Below are positions 10,479 through 56,730 of a stretch of 64,000 nt of DNA, in pieces. The position numbers and the translations under genes were made by a program. The notes under the pieces are model-generated. The model ran no database searches. It saw nothing but the letters and a program-made list of their open reading frames with translations, and had not been told where the DNA came from. Positions within the stretch are counted from its first letter, which is position 1. Each line of letters opens with the position of its first letter. The stretch lies in the IMG/VR virus record IMGVR_UViG_2875713109_000001, one strand, 5' to 3'. The stretch is from a virus (taxonomy: Duplodnaviria > Heunggongvirae > Uroviricota > Caudoviricetes).

Positions 10479-11294
10479 TTAGCCAAGGCGCTTACGGCGC
10501 AGTTTCATTGACTTTTTGCGGGCAAGTTTTGCCGCGCCGGTCTGGGCTTTTCGACGCGCTTTTTTCAGCGCCGATTTTTGAGCCGCAGTCAGACGTTTTT
10601 TACGCAGGCGTTTACGGATGAGTTTGATCTCACCGTTACGAACAACCTTCTTAAATGCTTCAGTCAGCATTTCATCAGAAGTGCCAGCAACAACAAACGC
10701 CGCTTCCAGTTCGTCGCGGTCGTCGCTATCTAAACCAGCGATAGAGGCACCAACATCAGCAGCAGCGTCGTCGTCTTCATCGTCAGCCAGTGCTTCGATC
10801 AGGTCATCATCTACACCGCATGCTGCGAGGAAGTCAGCAACATTTGCCCATGCTTCGTTATAGGCATCGTCCTGTTCTTCTGTAACTTCGGAGTCGTCGT
10901 CATCAGAGATACCAGCGATAGCCTGAACGAAACCATCAAGGGAGTCGAAAGTCAGATCACCGCTATCAGCCCAGGCGAAAACGGCGTCGGCCGCATCACT
11001 CAACGCATTCTGCATAGCACTTCGATTTGCAGCTTCCAGAATCATCTGGTGCGCCTGTTCGACGGTCCATTCTTTACCGTCTTTCCCTTCCAGGATTTGC
11101 TCAGGAGCCGGGGCAGATGGAACGTTATCGTTAGTCTGTGCCGCCGGTTCCGGATTATTATTAATAACCGGATCTGTTGGCGGTTCGGCGCTTGCTCGGG
11201 CAGACTCCATCAGCTGCACAGGATCAGAGTTCAAAGCGAAACGGGACAGTCCATTCCCCAAAAATGCCCCGGATTGAAAAAAGTTTTTGCTCAT
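10479..11294 (-). CDS. hypothetical virion-associated protein (acidic body, basic C-terminal tail)
   Basis: 271 aa; Asp/Glu-rich middle and Lys/Arg-rich C-terminus KKRLTAAQKSALKKARRKAQ...; follows sheath gene. Confidence 0.45.
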   Translation of the reverse strand: MSKNFFQSGAFLGNGLSRFALNSDPVQLMESARASAEPPTDPVINNNPEPAAQTNDNVPSAPAPEQILEGKDGKEWTVEQAHQMILEAANRSAMQNALSDAADAVFAWADSGDLTFDSLDGFVQAIAGISDDDDSEVTEEQDDAYNEAWANVADFLAACGVDDDLIEALADDEDDDAAADVGASIAGLDSDDRDELEAAFVVAGTSDEMLTEAFKKVVRNGEIKLIRKRLRKKRLTAAQKSALKKARRKAQTGAAKLARKKSMKLRRKRLG

Positions 11295-11303
11295 TGTATT
11301 CCC

Positions 11304-12893
11304 TTACTTAATAAGCAGCGGTACGCCCTGGATACGACGGGCTACGCCAGTCGGGCAGCAGGCCCAGACTACTTCCCATTTATCGAATTCCGCCTGCGTA
11401 ACTTTCAGCACATACGGTTCTGTACCGTCAGCATCAGGATCACGAGGAGCCACCAGAGCGCCGGAGGCGACAAAGCGATCCAAAAGTTTGGTCATCCCTT
11501 TAGTCAGACCAGCGGCAGTAATACCGTCAGGGCTATGCTTCATCTGGCGGGCTAACTGGACAAAGAAACGGCTGATTGCATTCATCAGGGATGGGACGTG
11601 CTGGAAGTGCAGATAGTTATCCTGCGTGCAGCAAGTTAAAGCATCGTCGATGATCATCTGGCCAGAGGTGCCAACAGATACTTTATTGAGGCGGCCCTTA
11701 ACCATTGCTTCTTCGTCCGGGGTATCTTCCGGATACAGCGGTTGAATTGACGCACGAGCAATGACGGCACGTTCTTCACCAGCCGGTGAGTAATGCCAAC
11801 CGCCGACATCAGAGTTTTTCTTGACGCCACGAGCTTTCGCCGCATACGCCGCGCCAGACAGACCGAAGACCACACGGGATTGGGTCCATTTGTCTTTGCA
11901 GGAGAACGGGAAGTGATAGACAGAACAGCTTACATAATCGGTACCAAGTAAACCGGTGCCCTCAACAGCTGTTAGTGCTTCTGCGTACCTTAATGTCGGT
12001 TTGACATCAAAGAAGCCATCAATCAGGCGATCTGCACAGATTTTACCTAATGCGGTGATAGCCGCATTGTCATAGCAGCCCAGGCCAAGAACAGCGGTGT
12101 ACATGTACGGCGCATTGTTCAGCACCTTAACCGCACGCAGGTACGCAGCGGTTGAGATTTTCGACTGATCACCGTTGGTACCACCAGTGAACGCCAACGA
12201 TTTTTTGTTTGTTACTTTCGCTGTAGAAATCAGATCTTCATTAACAACCGCGCGCAGATATTTAGAACGAGCTTCCAGAGCCGTAGGCAGATAACACAAG
12301 CGGCCCATGTCATCTTTCGCTTCTTCCGCCAAAGACACAGTGTGTGTCTCCAGGGTCGTTACCACACCAAGCGAAGTCGTCTGGGTCAGTTTTAAGATGA
12401 AGCGTTCATTACTCGCGCTGTCCGCTGTTGCCGTTTCGATGGTTAACTCACGGGTAGGTGAAATACACGGATCACCATCATCAACGTAGATAGCAAAGGC
12501 TTCGCCGCTATCAAGTTCAATTTCAGAACCGTATGGCAACGCACTGTAAGCCGGTTCGCCTGATTCATCGAACATAATAATCGGGAACTTCGCATCATCC
12601 GGAACAGCACGGACAACATAACCAGACGTTTGCTGAATAGCTTCGTACACATGGCGAATTGGTTCGAACTGTGAGCCGGTAGACGGCTTCAGCGGTTCGC
12701 CGAGAACATCTTCGTAATTGGATTCAGTAACCGCAAGAACAGTAAACGGCTTGCCACGCGCAAATACGCCAATACCAGCCCATAAGCTGCTATTTAATGC
12801 AACACCGGTAGATAACGTCGCATCGGCATTGATCGGGCTAACCGCGACGCCGGATGCATTACCTAATGACTGTTGAATTGAATATTGAGACAT
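11304..12893 (-). CDS. tail sheath protein (P1 gene 22-like)
   Basis: 529 aa; ATG with SD agggaaag; position between capsid gene and tail genes as in P1. Confidence 0.6.
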   Translation of the reverse strand: MSQYSIQQSLGNASGVAVSPINADATLSTGVALNSSLWAGIGVFARGKPFTVLAVTESNYEDVLGEPLKPSTGSQFEPIRHVYEAIQQTSGYVVRAVPDDAKFPIIMFDESGEPAYSALPYGSEIELDSGEAFAIYVDDGDPCISPTRELTIETATADSASNERFILKLTQTTSLGVVTTLETHTVSLAEEAKDDMGRLCYLPTALEARSKYLRAVVNEDLISTAKVTNKKSLAFTGGTNGDQSKISTAAYLRAVKVLNNAPYMYTAVLGLGCYDNAAITALGKICADRLIDGFFDVKPTLRYAEALTAVEGTGLLGTDYVSCSVYHFPFSCKDKWTQSRVVFGLSGAAYAAKARGVKKNSDVGGWHYSPAGEERAVIARASIQPLYPEDTPDEEAMVKGRLNKVSVGTSGQMIIDDALTCCTQDNYLHFQHVPSLMNAISRFFVQLARQMKHSPDGITAAGLTKGMTKLLDRFVASGALVAPRDPDADGTEPYVLKVTQAEFDKWEVVWACCPTGVARRIQGVPLLIK

Positions 12894-12953
12894 AACTTTC
12901 CCTGTTATGCGCCCCGCACGGGGGCGCTATGTTAAACGGAGAACTTCCCGTGA

Positions 12954-14660
12954 TTACTCAGAGTCACCGGCATCAATCATGTTACCGGTCAGGAAGTTAA
13001 TTCCGCCATTTTTGGCCATAGTCAGAGTTACACGCGTGAAGTAGTCAGCGCCGTTACGTGGGTGCATATCGTTGATAGCCGAACCCCACAGAGTGGTTCG
13101 GTTAACTAGTGCCGGGGTGGTCGGATGCTGGAATGGGACAGCCGGGACTGCATCACCAGTTACGAAGCCCGCTTTGCCCGGATTTTCATCACGGACGTAG
13201 CACAGCACATCCATTGGGCTGAACTGGATACCGTCGGCGGTCAGGTTCGTACAAATACCTTCTGGTACTTCGAACACTTTGACGTTGCCGAACAGATTGC
13301 CAATGTAGTGGACGTATGGGGTCTGGATGTAATCTTCTGCTGGCTGGAAGAAATCCTTCGGCAATTGTTTGAAGAAAGATGCCGCATCAGCACCGGCATA
13401 CATCCCCATCGCACCAGAAGATTTAATACGCTCAATAATACCGCGATATACCGTCTGGAATTTGCCTCGAATGATGGTTGCCCACACATCAAAGGACTGG
13501 TTAGCTGGCAGTGCAATATCAAAGGAGTCGGTCGCAAGAGTTCGCCAAATCATGATACGAAGACGAAGCATATCTTGCTCATGGGACAGGTATTCCTTCA
13601 GGGTGCGGAACTGTAGGGAGCCAAGATCCAGACCAAATTCACGCTGTGCTTCATACGCCGCCTGTACCGTGTGCTCAGCCGCGATGACGAACTGGTTTGG
13701 GAACAGGGTGTAACTCTTCATTTCGTGGTTGATAAGTGGGATCAGCTCAGGAGCTGCTTCTATATTGATCTCCGCCTCAATGGCGATCTCTGTACCTTTA
13801 TCTGGCGCTTTGGAGAACGACAGGACAATCTGACCAACGTTGTAATTCAAAGAGCAAGTAACAGTGATTTGTTCGCCTGCTTTGTTATTGAATGTGTGAA
13901 GCAGAGTGCCGGAGCCGTTATCAACAACAGACTTAATACGGTTAACGTAGATGTTTGTGCGACCTTTGCGAATCGGGACATTCTGACCTTCGACATCTTC
14001 CATCTTGAAGGTTGCAGTTTTGCTGGTGCCGTCGGAGCTTGCAACCAGCACATAGCGGCGGCGCAACTGGCTGTACACGCCAACGGATTGCATGTCCAGA
14101 ACATCACCAATAGCATAAGAGCCAAAAGAAGAACCCGCTACGTTAAAGATTTCATAGATTTCGGACTTGTCACGCGTAACCGGAATGAATGTACACGCAT
14201 CAGCGGTAGCTGCCCCCAACTGAACAGGCAGGATCATCGCCAGGAATAAAGGCAGACGCATAACCCCGTCAGAAACACTCATCATCTCTGCCGCGACTGA
14301 TTCCAGCATCGCTTTATTGGTGGCATCCATGCTATTGCGGGTGGACTCAATCAGGCAGTTTTCCAGCGTCTGGTGGCAGGAGGCCAGAATTTCCGGACGT
14401 GGCATAGATTTATGTGTTGCGGCGTAGTCAGCCAGTGCACTTGCCCACGCTGTAGCGATTTGAGCGGTGGCATTATCAGAGATACCCGCAAAAATTGGGT
14501 CTTTACGTGCAGCTTCAAGGATAGATGCGGCACGCGCGGCATCATCTTTAATGAATTGGTTATCAGTACCGAACTGCGCAGTGCTTGCCCAGCCAAGCAC
14601 AGCTTTAGAGCGTTTTGCGATATCTGCAATACGATTCTGGTATTCGCGTAAGTTACTCAA
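12954..14660 (-). CDS. major head protein (P1 gene 23-like)
   Basis: Large ORF adjacent to parS as P1 gene 23; no ATG near 5-prime end, TTG at 14660 has SD aaggaag; ORF-track start 14681 is also TTG. Confidence 0.55.
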   Translation of the reverse strand: MSNLREYQNRIADIAKRSKAVLGWASTAQFGTDNQFIKDDAARAASILEAARKDPIFAGISDNATAQIATAWASALADYAATHKSMPRPEILASCHQTLENCLIESTRNSMDATNKAMLESVAAEMMSVSDGVMRLPLFLAMILPVQLGAATADACTFIPVTRDKSEIYEIFNVAGSSFGSYAIGDVLDMQSVGVYSQLRRRYVLVASSDGTSKTATFKMEDVEGQNVPIRKGRTNIYVNRIKSVVDNGSGTLLHTFNNKAGEQITVTCSLNYNVGQIVLSFSKAPDKGTEIAIEAEINIEAAPELIPLINHEMKSYTLFPNQFVIAAEHTVQAAYEAQREFGLDLGSLQFRTLKEYLSHEQDMLRLRIMIWRTLATDSFDIALPANQSFDVWATIIRGKFQTVYRGIIERIKSSGAMGMYAGADAASFFKQLPKDFFQPAEDYIQTPYVHYIGNLFGNVKVFEVPEGICTNLTADGIQFSPMDVLCYVRDENPGKAGFVTGDAVPAVPFQHPTTPALVNRTTLWGSAINDMHPRNGADYFTRVTLTMAKNGGINFLTGNMIDAGDSE

Positions 14661-14711
14661 TTTACTCTTCCTTAAACACAAGGCACTTGTGTGAATCCCT
14701 TTTCGGAAGAG

Positions 14712-14740
14712 ATTTTATTGAAAGTCACTTGTTGACTTTC
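14712..14740 (-). promoter_or_regulatory. candidate Lpa-dependent late promoter of capsid operon
   Basis: Minus-strand read GAAAGTCAACAAGTGACTTTC-aa-TAAAAT: 9-bp inverted repeat plus -10 hexamer. Confidence 0.45.
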
Positions 14741-14799
14741 TCGCGAAAAGTAATTTTTTAAATTTTTTTGTGCGGGGAGGAGAACGAGTAATACAGGCG

Positions 14800-14890
14800 T
14801 TAAATTGTGGGAATTTCAGCCTGAAATCTTTTATGAATATTTATATATATCATGCACTTATACATGAAATCGGCGCGGGACATTTTAGGC
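14800..14890. other. parS: parS-like partition site
   Basis: Downstream of parB; inverted heptamers aatttcag/ctgaaat, AT-rich spacer, second tgaaatcggcgc copy; resembles P1 parS box architecture with different sequence. Confidence 0.5.
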
Positions 14891-14926
14891 AGAGGAGGAG
14901 GCTAAAACCACCTCCCACCAGCTGGA

Positions 14927-15892
14927 TTATTCCCCAGCAGACATTTTCCCAATGATTTTTTTTATTGCTTCGTCAATTTCAGTTTGCACTTCAGACGGGA
15001 GTCTGGAGAACTCGTAGGCGACTACCCGTTTTTTCGGATCAGACTTCTTTCTGGCGTATTGACGACGGTCAGAGAAGTCTCGCAGCTTCTCAACCACCAC
15101 AGATTTAACCGGCGCGGGCTTCAGGCTTTTGCTTTCCGCTTTGAAGATAGCCAGTATCTTCGCTTTATCCTCTTTCGCGCCCTCAGTCTCTGCAATTCGT
15201 TCGCGCACCGTATCAACCAGCTCTTCAATAGGTACGCTTTTAGCGTTGGCATCCTCGGAGATCTGGAGCAGTAACTGGTAATCTGGCAGGGCGAGATCGC
15301 TGGCAACAGGGAAGACAGCAATCATCTCATCCGGCACCGCTGCCGCCTGGAACGCGCGCGTAACTTTAGCCTTTGAAATGTTCTCAGCGCGGGCGATCTC
15401 TTCTTTGGTCATGCTCTTACCATACATAACCTCGAAGCGTTTACCCAGTTCGCGCAGGGTGTGTTCGCGGGCTGTCTGGATATCAATGGCCAGCTGGCGT
15501 GCATCCGCCAGGCTGATCTCATCTTTCGTCACCAGAATCTCAAATTTCGTTTCATTAAAGATACACGCAGCGCGGCGACGTGATCCGTCCAATACCTCAA
15601 TGCGCTCCCCAACCATACGACCGATAGCCGGGAAGAACTGTTGCAATTTAATGGTGCGGGAAATATCGCTTACCGACTCAGGGGTGAGCAGAGACTGATC
15701 GCGGCCGTTAACTGCCGGGTCAACGAACGTGCGCGACTCAATCTCACCACTCAGCACAACGGTAAGCAAAAATTTAGCCTGGCGGCCAGATTTTAGGGTA
15801 AAGGTTTTGGTGCCTTCACTGCCTTCAAGCATGCGAGCAAACTCGGAGCTATTCTTGCCCAGCACTCGTCCACGGGAAACTATTTTTTTCAT
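14927..15892 (-). CDS. parB: partition protein ParB
   Basis: 321 aa; conserved ParB-like block FVDPAVNGRDQSLLTPESV...QQFFPAIG; start overlaps parA stop. Confidence 0.8.
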   Translation of the reverse strand: MKKIVSRGRVLGKNSSEFARMLEGSEGTKTFTLKSGRQAKFLLTVVLSGEIESRTFVDPAVNGRDQSLLTPESVSDISRTIKLQQFFPAIGRMVGERIEVLDGSRRRAACIFNETKFEILVTKDEISLADARQLAIDIQTAREHTLRELGKRFEVMYGKSMTKEEIARAENISKAKVTRAFQAAAVPDEMIAVFPVASDLALPDYQLLLQISEDANAKSVPIEELVDTVRERIAETEGAKEDKAKILAIFKAESKSLKPAPVKSVVVEKLRDFSDRRQYARKKSDPKKRVVAYEFSRLPSEVQTEIDEAIKKIIGKMSAGE

Positions 15893-17100
15893 GCCGCCTC
15901 ACCCCTAACAAACTCAATTCGATCAAACACAGCCTTAGTGAAACGCTCGGCCTCGGTTCGTGCCTTCTTCAGCGCCTCTGCGCTGCCTGGATACGATTGC
16001 GGGTTGGCACTGATTACGGTGTCGAAAGACTCGCCGCATCGCTCAAATCCATCCAGACGAGGCAGAGAAGAGTCCAGAATGTTGCTGGCGTAAACCTCAC
16101 GCGCAAGGCTGTGTGATGTCTCGTGATCGCGCTTGCCGGTCATCTTCGACATAAAACCAATGCTGGCGCTTAAACGCGGTTCTACGCCTTCCTCCTCCAG
16201 TTGCTCCAGCATTTCTGGCAGACGGGTGAGATATTTCAGTGTTGAGTGGAAGTCAACCTGGGCTGGTGGGGTAGGGGTAAGCAGCAAATCGCTGGCCGCC
16301 AGACCGTTGAGCAGGAACGGATCCAGGTGTGGACCGGTATCAATAAAGATAAAGTCATAATCATCCGCAACACGATCAATGATATTGCGTCGAAGGATTT
16401 CGTACTGATTTTGTCCGGGAAGATGCTCTTCAACCAGCTCTTTCCATTGGCTGGCAACAAAGCCATCGTCGATAGAGGCTGGAATCACGTCTACGCCAGG
16501 AACGATGGTCGGACGAATCACCTCTTTGCGTAGCGTCTCCGCGTCCAGGTCGTTCAGCATCGCCTGCGCAGCGGTTTCCAGGATGGAACCAATACTGTGA
16601 GTATGGTCGAGGAACATTGTGCTGGATGCCTGAGGGTCAAGGTCAATTACCAGAATACGCAGATCGTGACGCAGTAAATCCTGATGCACACGCAGAGCGT
16701 GCGCCAACGTGACTGTGGAAACCGTTTTGGATACGCCACCCTTCAGGTTTACGACAAAAATAACGTAAGGCGATTTGTGAATGTCGCGATATTTTGGGAT
16801 CTTACGGTGGGCATAGATATCAATGACGTTCTGGATGGTCAGCGCGTACTGTTCAACGTTACCGACCTGTTTCTTGTTGAACTGGTACCCATTATCTTCC
16901 ATCTCTTTGATGGCCTGCTCCACAATGCGGCGGCTCAGCTTCGGCAACTTTGCCACAGCGTTACGAGTGAACGTCTGATAATACTCGGTCTGATTGAACT
17001 CTTTGCGCTGATCTTCAATATCCTGACTCATGGCCTTAAGTAATGCGCTTGCACGAAGAGCTATGGTGCCGACACCGCCGTAATCGCGTTTCATCATCAT
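15889..17100 (-). CDS. parA: partition ATPase ParA
   Basis: 403 aa; deviant Walker A KGGVSKT and ParA blocks VIDLDPQ, LPRLDGFERCGESFDTVISANP; divergent from P1 ParA as I recall it. Confidence 0.9.
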   Translation of the reverse strand: MMMKRDYGGVGTIALRASALLKAMSQDIEDQRKEFNQTEYYQTFTRNAVAKLPKLSRRIVEQAIKEMEDNGYQFNKKQVGNVEQYALTIQNVIDIYAHRKIPKYRDIHKSPYVIFVVNLKGGVSKTVSTVTLAHALRVHQDLLRHDLRILVIDLDPQASSTMFLDHTHSIGSILETAAQAMLNDLDAETLRKEVIRPTIVPGVDVIPASIDDGFVASQWKELVEEHLPGQNQYEILRRNIIDRVADDYDFIFIDTGPHLDPFLLNGLAASDLLLTPTPPAQVDFHSTLKYLTRLPEMLEQLEEEGVEPRLSASIGFMSKMTGKRDHETSHSLAREVYASNILDSSLPRLDGFERCGESFDTVISANPQSYPGSAEALKKARTEAERFTKAVFDRIEFVRGEAA

Positions 17101-17208
17101 CTCCTTATCATTTCGTATGAGTGAATTGTACGTTTGATTCTGCTACGTGCAACTTATTTTGATTTGTGCGTAAATTATTGCACGTAAAAAATGGCGATGA
17201 GGCTATTA

Positions 17209-17492
17209 GATGTGTGCTGGAGGGATGATGCAGGACCAGAATGTGCGATAGAGGGAAGTCGCATTGAATTATGTGTTGTGGAGGGATCGCTGGTATCAAA
17301 TATGTGCGCTGAAGGGAAAGATAGAAGATTAGATGTGCGCTGGAGGGAAACTTGGATGGTTAGATGTGTGCTGGAGGGAATGTCTGGGCAAACTGCGTGG
17401 CGCAACCCTCCAGCGCACACCAAAAACAGGAAAATGGGCAGGCATTCCCGGCAGCGCACATTTTTCAAATGCAGCTGCCCTCCAGCACACAC
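17209..17492. repeat. incA: incA iteron array (nine RepA-binding 19-bp repeats)
   Basis: Six copies of gatgtg(t/c)gctggaggga-like repeats in one orientation and three in the other, immediately downstream of repA. Confidence 0.8.
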
Positions 17493-18353
17493 TTATTCGG
17501 GAAGTTTCAGCTTTGGATTGCGAGAATGGACGATTACAAAACTTTCCCGGCCTTTCTTCTCAATTGAACAGTCGAGATAGCCGATTGTTTTAAGCTGTTC
17601 TATCGCTTTCTTAATGATACGGTTTTGCTCGCCAACAGCTGACTGCAAAGCCAGGCGCTCACGGATTCGCGCGAACGATAGCGGCAACGGGTTCTGCGGA
17701 AGGCTTTCGATGAAAGTGTAAATGGCTTGTGCAGCTTCTTTCTTCGGAAGGGCACGCAAGGCGTGGTGTTGCAACAGAACGCGATAATCAAGCTGGAACA
17801 GCTCCCAGAGCTTCGAATCGGCCTCCAGCTCTATCAGATCAAGGTCAGCATCAAAACGCCCGACCTTCAGCAGACCAGTCTGATAGCCGCCTTTAGCATC
17901 TTTTCCGCGCTTAAAAGCGATACCCTTGTTACGCAAGCGTCCAAGTGATTCATGAATGGTTAAACGCAGTTTCGCATCCAGACGTTTTGAGGGGAAACCA
18001 CAGGCTTTAGCGAACTCCTGAAACGATAACTGGATGGTGTTTGAAGACAAGCCGTATTTGCTGAACGCGTAGATGACACCGATCCACGTTTTGAAATCAG
18101 TATCCATATCGAGTCGAGGACCGGTGATTTTAATATCATCGTAACCCTCGGCTTTAGCTATCTCCAGCTGGGAAAACGCTTTGGTGGCATCAATCTCTTT
18201 ACTTTCTCCTTTGCTCTTTGATGGCTTCGGCACGAATACCCCCAAGCGCATCAACGCTACAGGCTGCACAGTGTTGTTTGAATTAACTGTTAGTTCTTTT
18301 GCCTTACTTTCAATGTCTGCGTAAAGAATATCGGAGATAAATGATTGATTCAT
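17493..18353 (-). CDS. repA: plasmid replication initiator RepA
   Basis: 286-aa ORF flanked by iteron arrays on both sides, as in the P1 R replicon. Confidence 0.85.
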   Translation of the reverse strand: MNQSFISDILYADIESKAKELTVNSNNTVQPVALMRLGVFVPKPSKSKGESKEIDATKAFSQLEIAKAEGYDDIKITGPRLDMDTDFKTWIGVIYAFSKYGLSSNTIQLSFQEFAKACGFPSKRLDAKLRLTIHESLGRLRNKGIAFKRGKDAKGGYQTGLLKVGRFDADLDLIELEADSKLWELFQLDYRVLLQHHALRALPKKEAAQAIYTFIESLPQNPLPLSFARIRERLALQSAVGEQNRIIKKAIEQLKTIGYLDCSIEKKGRESFVIVHSRNPKLKLPE

Positions 18354-54076: not shown

Positions 54077-54110
54077 ATAACTTCGTATAGCATACATTAT
54101 ACGAAGTTAT
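54077..54110. other. loxP: loxP site-specific recombination site
   Basis: Exact ATAACTTCGTATA-GCATACAT-TATACGAAGTTAT, 34 bp. Confidence 0.95.
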
Positions 54111-54129
54111 CTTAAGGGTTATTGAACAT

Positions 54130-54202
54130 GATCAATTTACCTGTAAATCCATACAGTTCAATACCTTATCAGGTCAAATAGTGATCACTTGATCATTTGA
54201 TC
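54130..54202 (+). promoter_or_regulatory. GATC cluster in cre upstream region (Dam-sensitive promoter candidate)
   Basis: GATC at 54130, 54183, 54191, 54199 read directly. Confidence 0.4.
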
Positions 54203-54299
54203 AAGGTTGCGCTACGTAAAATCTGCGAAATGTTGGCAGTGTTAGTGCTCCAGATTTCGCGTAGCGCACTTAGCACCACCAATCAATCAGAGGTGAAAA

Positions 54300-54521
54300 A
54301 TGGGATATTCAGCTGCTAAAGTGTCCACTCATCTTGAGCTTGAGAAAAACCGTGGTTACTGGCGGGCAAAAGGGTTTGATCGTGATAGTTGTCAACTGTC
54401 ATTATCGCGCGGTGAAGAGAAAATAGAACGCACGCGCGGTCGCTGGCGTTTCTATGACGAGAACCATAAACAGGTAAAGGCAGAGCCGATCCTGTACACT
54501 TTACTTAAAACCATTATCTGA
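54300..54521 (+). CDS. hypothetical small protein between loxP and cre
   Basis: 73-aa ORF with ATG and strong SD agaggtgaaaa; may be spurious. Confidence 0.3.
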   Translation: MGYSAAKVSTHLELEKNRGYWRAKGFDRDSCQLSLSRGEEKIERTRGRWRFYDENHKQVKAEPILYTLLKTII

Positions 54522-54528
54522 GTGTTAA

Positions 54529-55560
54529 ATGTCCAATTTACTGACCGTACACCAAAATTTGCCTGCATTACCGGTCGATGCAAGGAGTGATGAGGTTCGC
54601 AAGAACCTGATGGACATGTTCAGGGATCGCCAGGCGTTTTCTGAGCATACCTGGAAAATGCTTCTGTCCGTTTGCCGGTCGTGGGCGGCATGGTGCAAGT
54701 TGAATAACCGGAAATGGTTTCCCGCAGAACCTGAAGATGTTCGCGATTATCTTCTATATCTTCAGGCGCGCGGTCTGGCAGTAAAAACTATCCAGCAACA
54801 TTTGGGCCAGCTAAACATGCTTCATCGTCGGTCCGGGCTGCCACGACCAAGTGACAGCAATGCTGTTTCACTGGTTATGCGGCGGATTCGAAAAGAAAAC
54901 GTTGATGCCGGTGAACGTGCAAAACAGGCATTGGCGTTCGAACGCACTGATTTCGACCAGGTTCGTTCACTCATGGAAAATAGCGATCGCTGCCAGGATA
55001 TACGGAATCTGGCATTTCTGGGGATTGCTTATAACACCCTGTTACGTATAGCCGAAATTGCCAGGATCAGGGTTAAAGATATCTCACGTACTGACGGTGG
55101 GAGAATGTTAATCCATATTGGCAGAACGAAAACGCTGGTTAGCACCGCAGGTGTAGAGAAGGCACTTAGCCTGGGGGTAACTAAACTGGTCGAGCGATGG
55201 ATTTCTGTCTCTGGTGTGGCTGATGATCCGAATAACTACCTGTTTTGCCGTGTCAGAAAAAATGGTGTTGCCGCGCCATCTGCCACCAGCCAGCTATCAA
55301 CTCGCGCTCTGGAAGGGATTTTTGAAGCAACTCATCGATTGATTTACGGCGCTAAGGATGACTCTGGGCAGAGATACCTGGCCTGGTCTGGACACAGTGC
55401 CCGTGTCGGAGCCGCGCGAGATATGGCCCGCGCCGGAGTTTCAATACCGGAGATCATGCAAGCTGGTGGCTGGACCAACGTAAATATTGTCATGAACTAT
55501 ATCCGTAACCTGGATAGTGAAACAGGGGCAATGGTGCGCCTGCTGGAAGATGGCGATTAG
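54529..55560 (+). CDS. cre: Cre tyrosine recombinase
   Basis: 343 aa, matches Cre (MSNLLTVHQNLPALPVD...LEDGD) with one apparent difference from my recalled reference (DARSDE versus DATSDE). Confidence 0.97.
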   Translation: MSNLLTVHQNLPALPVDARSDEVRKNLMDMFRDRQAFSEHTWKMLLSVCRSWAAWCKLNNRKWFPAEPEDVRDYLLYLQARGLAVKTIQQHLGQLNMLHRRSGLPRPSDSNAVSLVMRRIRKENVDAGERAKQALAFERTDFDQVRSLMENSDRCQDIRNLAFLGIAYNTLLRIAEIARIRVKDISRTDGGRMLIHIGRTKTLVSTAGVEKALSLGVTKLVERWISVSGVADDPNNYLFCRVRKNGVAAPSATSQLSTRALEGIFEATHRLIYGAKDDSGQRYLAWSGHSARVGAARDMARAGVSIPEIMQAGGWTNVNIVMNYIRNLDSETGAMVRLLEDGD

Positions 55561-55577
55561 CCATTAACGCGTAAATG

Positions 55578-55594
55578 ATTGCTCTAATTCTTTG
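55578..55594 (+). promoter_or_regulatory. weak C1 operator-like site after cre
   Basis: attgctctaattctttg, 13/17. Confidence 0.35.
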
Positions 55595-55610
55595 ATATTT
55601 ATGGTGACAT

Positions 55611-55922
55611 ATGAGAAAGGATTTCAACATCGACGGAAAATATGTAGTGCTGTCTGTAAGCACTAATATTCAGTCGCCAGCCGTCATTGTCACTGTAAAG
55701 CTGAGCGATAGAATGCCTGATATTGATTCAATATCCGTTGCGTTCCCTGTCAAAAGTATGCGTGGTGCTGAACATTTCGTGATGAATGCCACCGAGGAAG
55801 AAGCACGGCGCGGTTTTGCTAAAGTGATGTCTGAGTTTGGCGAATTTTTGGGGCACGTTGACAAAGCCCTCTCAATCAGTTCAGCAAGGTCCAAAGCGTT
55901 AACAGCTTCCATGATGAAATAA
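55611..55922 (+). CDS. hypothetical cre-adjacent protein (cra position)
   Basis: 103-aa ORF, ATG start, followed by hairpin gcctggc-aagg-agccaggc. Confidence 0.45.
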   Translation: MRKDFNIDGKYVVLSVSTNIQSPAVIVTVKLSDRMPDIDSISVAFPVKSMRGAEHFVMNATEEEARRGFAKVMSEFGEFLGHVDKALSISSARSKALTASMMK

Positions 55923-56053
55923 AAAAAGCCTGGCAAGGAGCCAGGCTGCACAAAAGAGCGGGTTTGTATTCCGCATCCAATCAATCAAGAAGGAGTATAG
56001 CACACAGGTACTGAAGTGAAAAAATGTGATTCGCGAGAAACAAAATATCTACC

Positions 56054-56083
56054 ATTGCTCTAATTGATTGCTATAATTGAGCC
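56054..56083 (+). promoter_or_regulatory. tandem C1 operator-like sites upstream of ref
   Basis: attgctctaattgattg (14/17) overlapping attgctataattgagcc (11/17). Confidence 0.45.
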
Positions 56084-56169
56084 GCAGTTTTTGTCAACTA
56101 CGAAGACGTTGCCATTACTTCACTCCTTGACATCATAGGCGGCCATTAGGCCGCCTTTTTTTTGACCAT

Positions 56170-56730
56170 ATGAAAACAATCGAACAAAAAATTGAACAGT
56201 GCCGCAAGTGGCAGAAGGCAGCCAGAGAACGAGCGATCGCTCGGCAACGGGAGAAGTTGGCTGATCCGGTCTGGCGAGAATCTCAATATCAGAAAATGCG
56301 GAATACTATCGATCGCCGTATCGCTAAACAGAAAGAGCGCCCACCAGCCAGCAAAACGCGGAAAAGCGCGGTAAAAATAAAATCTCGTGACTTGAAGGGA
56401 CGAACACCGACGGCGGAGGAACGGCGCATAGCCAATGCTCTTGGCGCTCTCCCCTGCATTGCCTGCTATATGCATGAAGTAATATCTGAAGAGGTGTCTC
56501 TGCACCATATCTCCGGTCGTACCGCGCCTGGTTGTCACAAAAAGCAATTGCCACTTTGTAGATGGCACCACCAGCATGCAGCACCGGCTGAAGTAAGAGA
56601 AAAATACCCCTGGCTGGTCCCTGTTCATGCCGATGGTGTGGTTGGAGGCAAGAAAGAATTCACCTTGCTGAACAAGTCAGAGATGGAGTTGCTGGCTGAC
56701 GCCTATGAAATGGCAAACATCATGCACTAA
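56170..56730 (+). CDS. ref: Ref recombination enhancement HNH endonuclease
   Basis: 186 aa; Cys/His HNH-like cluster CIACYMHEV...HHISG...CRWHHQH; position after cre as in P1. Confidence 0.85.
   Translation: MKTIEQKIEQCRKWQKAARERAIARQREKLADPVWRESQYQKMRNTIDRRIAKQKERPPASKTRKSAVKIKSRDLKGRTPTAEERRIANALGALPCIACYMHEVISEEVSLHHISGRTAPGCHKKQLPLCRWHHQHAAPAEVREKYPWLVPVHADGVVGGKKEFTLLNKSEMELLADAYEMANIMH

Follow-up and report, generated by a model that had tools for sequence, protein, structure and literature searches.

Layout of the partition locus

The window, by which we mean the whole 64-kb stretch of DNA that was analysed, carries on its minus strand a complete type Ia partition cassette (14799-17205), made up of a par promoter/operator region, the genes parA and parB and a parS centromere-like site. 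The first of the two genes, parA (15889-17100, minus strand), encodes a Walker-type partition ATPase of 403 aa with an N-terminal HTH and is preceded by a 105-nt leader that forms the par promoter/operator region (17101-17205, minus strand). Its stop codon overlaps by 4 nt the start of parB (14927-15892, minus strand), which encodes the centromere-binding protein, of 321 aa. Downstream of parB there is a non-coding stretch with repeats (14799-14926), of which the part nearest the gene, between the parB stop codon and the first box of parS, is a GC-rich spacer of 45 nt delimited by alignment (14882-14926, minus strand). A spacer hairpin at 14888-14919, with an RNA folding energy of -16.9 kcal/mol, exceeds shuffled sequences in stability only slightly (z = -1.8), a weak signal. 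The cassette is flanked beyond parS by a homologue of P1 gene 23, a large late gene (12954-14681), and beyond parA by iteron-like repeats (17206-17492), followed by an ORF for a RepA of 286 aa (17493-18353). Much further along the window lies Cre (54529-55557), which the original prediction rightly held to be nearly identical to that of P1, as the two share 342 of 343 residues (99.7%).

Both par proteins have the domains expected of their families. For ParA, these are the Pfam domains HTH_54 (E = 3e-37) and AAA_31 (E = 8e-24), and a KGGVSKT motif was seen in the alignment; the protein has a deviant Walker A core together with the N-terminal HTH, which in the P1par family is the autorepressor domain. 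Its best sequence match in the PDB is a full-length chain of 403 aa (3EZ9/3EZF, E = 6e-266), while a 398-aa chain (3EZ2), ranked below it, also matches over the full length; we take these entries to be crystal structures of P7 ParA and P1 ParA, respectively. ParB matches the Pfam family PF08775 (ParB, E = 6e-33), and its C-terminal half (residues 137-316) aligns to P1 ParB(142-333) of the ParB-parS co-crystals 1ZX4 and 2NTZ. The protein possesses both an HTH domain and the C-terminal dimer and box-B-binding domain of P1 type.

The closest known relative of the cassette is that of phage P7. Using megablast against the phage collection, positions 14690-17200 match the P7 par records X17529 and AF503408 (the P7 genome) with 98.3% DNA identity over the full length, and the window is collinear with P7 throughout. 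ParB is identical to P7 ParB (AAQ07528) at all 321 residues, and ParA at 402 of 403, the sole difference being residue 70, which is N here and D in P7. By segment, DNA identity to P7 is 99.4% for parA, 99.3% for parB, 98.8% for repA, 89.9% for incA and 91.0% for gene 23. Across the window as a whole, different stretches best match P7, RCS47 or other P1-like phages, and the element is a mosaic P1-like (Punavirus) phage-plasmid.

The parS site and the par operator

The parS site (14799-14881, minus strand) is of P7 type and lies directly downstream of parB, in the layout of the P1par family, with boxes B and A on one side of a central IHF site and boxes A, A, B and A on the other (B1-A1-IHF-A2-A3-B2-A4). 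Its boxes were placed by mapping from the P7 GenBank annotation, with which the site is collinear. Reading along the minus strand, box B1 (GTCCCG, 14876-14881) is the annotated boxB(1) of P7, and box A1 (ATTTCAT, 14864-14870) is likewise that of P7. Beyond the IHF site, box A2 (ATTTCAG, 14821-14827) and box A3, an inverted box A (CTGAAAT, 14813-14819), are both as in P7 and form an inverted repeat, and they are followed by box B2 (TTCCCA, 14808-14813), the discriminator hexamer, which equals boxB(2) of P7; P1 has TCGCCA at both box B positions. Last comes a variant box A4 (ATTTAAC, 14799-14805), which reads GTTTCAC in P7 and ATTTCAC in P1 and departs here from the ATTTCAN consensus. The position of the predicted IHF site (14848-14860, minus strand) was mapped from the P7 and P1 annotations; read on the plus strand, it is TATCATGCACTTA, which fits the consensus WATCAANNNNTTR at all but one position, with TATCAT-GCAC-TTA here corresponding to TATCAT-ATAT-TTA in P7, and IHF would be expected to bind there.

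Several of these elements had been glimpsed in the original prediction, which noted inverted heptamers (ATTTCAG at 14813-14819 and CTGAAAT at 14821-14827 when read on the plus strand, 1 nt apart), the lack of P1 TCGCCA boxes and the nearby string tgaaatcggcgc, which is indeed present at 14865-14876; the site does lack any TCGCCA box. Its suggestion that cggcgc takes the place of box B was mistaken, since by the annotated registration of P7 these bases are the 5-nt spacer between A1 and B1 together with one further base. What discriminates between species, in specificity as in incompatibility, is box B, with B2 as the essential copy; the second base of box B is read by a key aspartate of P1 ParB, and the set A2-A3-B2 is sufficient for ParB binding (PMC10999674). 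A core of 20 nt, TGGGAATTTCAGNCTGAAAT, has a single match in the 64-kb window with up to 3 mismatches, against 0.02 expected by chance, and as this pattern is unique within the 64 kb, a second or P1-type parS in the window was rejected.

In its overall identity to P7, the site stands at 86.7%, with differences at 11 of 83 positions. Two of these substitutions are in box A4, three occupy the NNNN positions of the IHF consensus and six lie in spacers, leaving none in the 32 positions of boxes B1, A1, A2, A3 and B2 (hypergeometric p = 0.003). The 45-nt spacer next to parB has the same identity to P7, with six substitutions.

At the other end of the cassette, the region 17101-17205 presumably serves as the operator, a role that we take over from the literature on P7. 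It contains, upstream of parA, a perfect 9-bp inverted repeat with the arms TACGTGCAA (17144-17152) and TTGCACGTA (17178-17186). The arms are the same in P7, the few substitutions sitting only between them, and no alignment of this stretch with the operator of P1 is possible, so that the operator is of P7 type and unlike that of P1. This agrees with the account of Hayes et al. from 1994, who are said to have found the P1 and P7 par operons to be autoregulated from dissimilar operators. A simple sigma-70 scan of 14650-17300 returned no consensus promoter, including upstream of parA, which on its face counts against a working P7-type operon; the scan is uninformative, given that the P7 par promoter is itself non-consensus. 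Terminator-like matches in the same scan were dismissed, being inside ORFs and at chance frequency.

Natural variation and partition specificity

With an identical ParB, a ParA that is one residue different and 98.3% identity in DNA, the alignment with P7 settles the predicted specificity as that of P7. The original prediction of a distinct partition specificity would accordingly hold with respect to P1, from which the box B hexamers and Arg277 of ParB set the locus apart, and fail in so far as it implied something new, the predicted specificity being P7's. The features that define the P7 species are all found here, namely a P7-type ParB including the C-terminal discriminator region, the P7 hexamers TTCCCA at B2 and GTCCCG at B1, and the P7-type operator. 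We consider it very probable that the cassette is a functional P7-type, type Ia ParABS system of the P1par family, serving a P1-like phage-plasmid whose replicon is of the IncY RepA/iteron kind. Such a cassette is already known, as it is the P7 par system and its difference from P1 was described decades ago; P7 par was first sequenced in 1989 (X17529) and has been dissected genetically and structurally since.

How the cassette would work can be sketched by analogy with the established P1/P7 model. ParB dimers would bind parS through two types of contact, with box A heptamers read by the HTH domains and box B hexamers by the C-terminal dimer domain, and IHF would bend the central AT-rich spacer so as to allow joint contact with both arms, B1-A1 and A2-A3-B2-A4. 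The resulting ParB-parS complex would then stimulate the ATPase of nucleoid-bound ParA, so that copies of the plasmid come to lie on both sides of the plane of division, while the operon would be autoregulated by ParA-ADP, with ParB as co-repressor, at the inverted repeat upstream of parA. Because box B and ParB are those of P7, species specificity and partition incompatibility of P7 type are predicted: with regard to par, the element is expected to be incompatible with P7-type plasmids but compatible with P1. In replication, it should be incompatible with both P1 and P7 by way of the shared incA/repA, the IncY repA and its iterons.

The P7-type cassette is widespread, and its parts vary to very different extents. 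At least 80% of 14690-17200 is covered by 234 plasmids of PLSDB, mostly from Escherichia, with some from Salmonella, Klebsiella, Shigella and others, and one of the plasmids in that database, the IncY plasmid NZ_AP027786.1, differs from the window by a single base (at window position 14832) across 13170-18353. When the parS region is compared on its own, about 4 PLSDB plasmids are at least 95% identical to the window, 101 are at 80-90% and 130 at 60-80%. The exact parS haplotype of the window, a mixed haplotype with the ATTTAAC box A4, is limited to about 4 plasmids of PLSDB at the level of at least 95% identity, an observation that counts against the P7-type assignment; so do the contrast between the identity of parS to P7 (86.7%) and that of the genes (99.3-99.4%), and the off-consensus base of box A4. 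A similar gradient runs through the P7-type members of 35 IMG/VR loci retrieved for their ParB relatives, in which identity to the window is 99.3-99.7% for parA, 95-99% for parB, 92-96% for the next intergenic stretch and about 92% for gene 23, with the spacer and parS, at 75-88%, diverging more than any other part of the locus.

Within this diverged segment the variation is far from even. Among 20 distinct P7-type parS haplotypes, whose paired ParBs differ from that of the window by at most 6 residues, 2 of the 32 core box positions are variable as against 32 of the other 51 (Fisher p = 1.6e-7), and boxes A1, A3 and B2 are invariant. On sequence grounds, this pattern is a natural footprint of the contacts made by ParB and IHF, and the conservation of the boxes argues that the parS of the window is functional and P7-specific. 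It also provides an independent confirmation of which parS positions are constrained, these being B1, A1, A2, A3, B2 and the IHF core, while variation across haplotypes is tolerated in box A4 and in the spacers, in agreement with the published genetics of P1 and P7. For the excess divergence seen in the spacers, the simplest explanation would be relaxed constraint together with recombination among P1-like lineages.

A divergence of this kind could also be read as functional. One such reading is that the parS site, which is 13% off P7 and has both the ATTTAAC box A4 and an altered IHF spacer, represents a new sub-specificity belonging to neither P1 nor P7, and in its favour are the existence of discrete parS haplotypes and the contrast, among P7-type loci, between 75-88% identity in parS and spacer and 99% in parA. 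We regard this as very unlikely, as ParB is fully identical to that of P7, as are both box B hexamers and boxes A1 to A3, and it is box B, B2 above all, together with the ParB C-terminus that determines specificity and incompatibility (PMC10999674). The changes are instead found in spacers, at the degenerate positions of the IHF site and in A4, a box that is not part of the A2-A3-B2 set for ParB binding (PMC10999674). Five of the retrieved loci (L003-L007) pair identical ParBs with very different spacers, and spacers thus cannot carry protein specificity. A weaker version, in which the discrete spacer and IHF-arm haplotypes may tune the geometry of the partition complex or the loading of ParB and so give rise to subgroups of partial compatibility, fares only slightly better and is a long shot; if true, it would offer a route to a new plasmid 'species' with no change in box B.

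The opposite reading, that parS is a decaying and non-functional remnant in a plasmid depending on other stability functions, draws on the same greater divergence of parS relative to the genes and on the non-consensus base in box A4. A decaying site would hardly be expected to spare all 32 core box positions from the 11 substitutions or to retain the consensus positions of the IHF site, and many loci have the same ATTTAAC box A4, among them the P7-type IMG/VR loci L003, L016, L018, L024 and L026. The parA and parB ORFs are moreover intact and evidently under purifying selection, which together make decay a still more remote prospect than a new sub-specificity.

The cassette among P1par-family systems

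Taken as a functional P7-type system, the cassette is of small importance beyond the correct annotation of the element as a P1-like (IncY) phage-plasmid with a P7 par cassette, although typing it as P7 par predicts which co-resident P1-like plasmids can coexist through partition. The alignments to P1, P7 and pMT1 that the original prediction called for assign the locus to the P7 species within the P1par family, and brought to light no high identity to P1 parS or to the discrimination residues of P1 ParB. With P7 par it has in common the gene order, the 4-nt overlap of parA and parB, the 45-nt spacer, boxes B1, A1, A2, A3 and B2, the arms of the operator inverted repeat and the neighbouring incA/repA replicon.

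With P1 par (parS/incB), it shares the family, the architecture, the parS box layout with its central IHF site and the place in the genome, with gene 23 on one side and incA/repA on the other. The proteins, which the original prediction aptly described as of P1 type yet divergent, have clear conserved blocks, identity being 58% for ParA and 43% for ParB. At the DNA level, the window is 94.1% identical to P1 over 11190-14830 and 94.9% from 17206 onward, whereas between 14830 and 17206 the parA core alone aligns, with 65% identity, and in the megablast of 14690-17200 P1 matches the first ~140 nt only. This heterology, limited to about 14831-17205 and set in flanks (gene 23, incA and repA) that are 85-99% identical, is the classic heterology of the P1 and P7 par cassettes. 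P1 further differs in having TCGCCA as box B where the hexamers here are TTCCCA and GTCCCG, in lacking the 45-nt spacer, in having a gap of 16 nt between parA and parB instead of an overlap, and in an operator of unrelated sequence. Arg277 of the window ParB, a residue kept in every P7-type ParB retrieved, aligns with Asp288 of P1 ParB, which according to Dabrazhynetskaya et al. in 2009 is reportedly the aspartate that reads box B. A drifted P1 par with P1 specificity, as the shared gene order and parS layout, the P1-like genome and the near-identical Cre might suggest, is a negligible prospect that these alignments refute, given the low protein identities, the different box B hexamers, an Arg in place of the P1 discriminator Asp288 and an operator that cannot be aligned.

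A further known relative is the pMT1-type par system of Yersinia pestis, which belongs to the same P1par family and has the same parS layout. It is exemplified among the IMG/VR relatives by the locus L035, which can be aligned through boxes A and B and encodes a ParB that shares 96% identity with pMT1 ParB and 68% with that of the window. In L035, box B is TCACCA and an Asn stands at the position occupied by R277 in P7 and D288 in P1.

Divergence of parS and its flanking non-coding sequence

The parS site and the 45-nt spacer that separates it from parB (window 14799-14926) form a local divergence hot spot, with only 75-88% identity among P7-type loci when compared with positions ~2464-2600 of loci L003-L037, the IMG/VR loci encoding ParB relatives. 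The adjoining genes are nearly invariant among the same type (parA, 99.3-99.7%; parB, 95-99%), and even gene 23 and the adjacent intergenic DNA are less diverged than parS and the spacer, at ~92-96%. The haplotypes of this segment are discrete, and from sequence comparison that of the window looks like a mix, with a P7-like left arm and an A4 side resembling that of the P7-type locus L024.

Within the spacer, between the parB stop codon and parS, lies a GC-rich hairpin on the minus strand (14888-14919; GGGAGGUGG...CCUCCUCC), with a folding energy of -16.9 kcal/mol (z = -1.8), which is present in all P7-type loci but absent from P1 and might act as a putative terminator or stabiliser of the par operon. 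CT-rich direct repeats are found on both sides of parS, at 14765-14782 and 14883-14900. The incA iteron region on the parA side (17206-17492) shares only 89.9% identity with P7 and 85.4% with P1, the adjoining repA being ~99% identical to both; here too, non-coding sequence diverges faster than the neighbouring gene.

Relatives of the window beyond the par locus

The nearest plasmid is NZ_AP027786.1 (IncY, 95.8 kb), with a single nucleotide difference over window 13170-18353. Its major capsid gene 23 carries an inserted IS4-like element, ISVsa5 (IS10-type), which is missing from gene 23 of the window (~13170-13183, compared with plasmid positions 157-1480); because the element interrupts this gene, the plasmid is probably a defective prophage. 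Further along, the lox-cre-c8-ref region (54094-56593) matches P1 positions 1-2500 at 97.6% identity, with Cre a single residue apart from that of P1, and this match means that the window spans lox, the conventional origin of the P1 map. Positions 25001-50000 are matched by 549 phage records, many Stx-converting and Salmonella phages among them, whereas the remaining stretches are matched by 31-32 records only; the segment must therefore hold sequence common far beyond the P1 group.

Box B variation among relatives

Two P7-type loci, L023 and L034, have GCCCCG rather than GTCCCG as box B1 (aligned to window 14876-14881), a change of the second base, while B2 is still TTCCCA and ParB retains R277. 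This is natural variation in B1, the one of the two B boxes that is not essential. Locus L035 (IMGVR_UViG_2924474320_000010, 1501-2660), which belongs to the P1par family and is of pMT1 type, encodes a ParB 96% identical to that of Yersinia pestis pMT1 and 68% identical to that of the window. Here, TCACCA occupies both box B positions and ParB has Asn where P1 has D288 and P7 has R277, a pairing that fits the published link between one ParB residue and one box B base.
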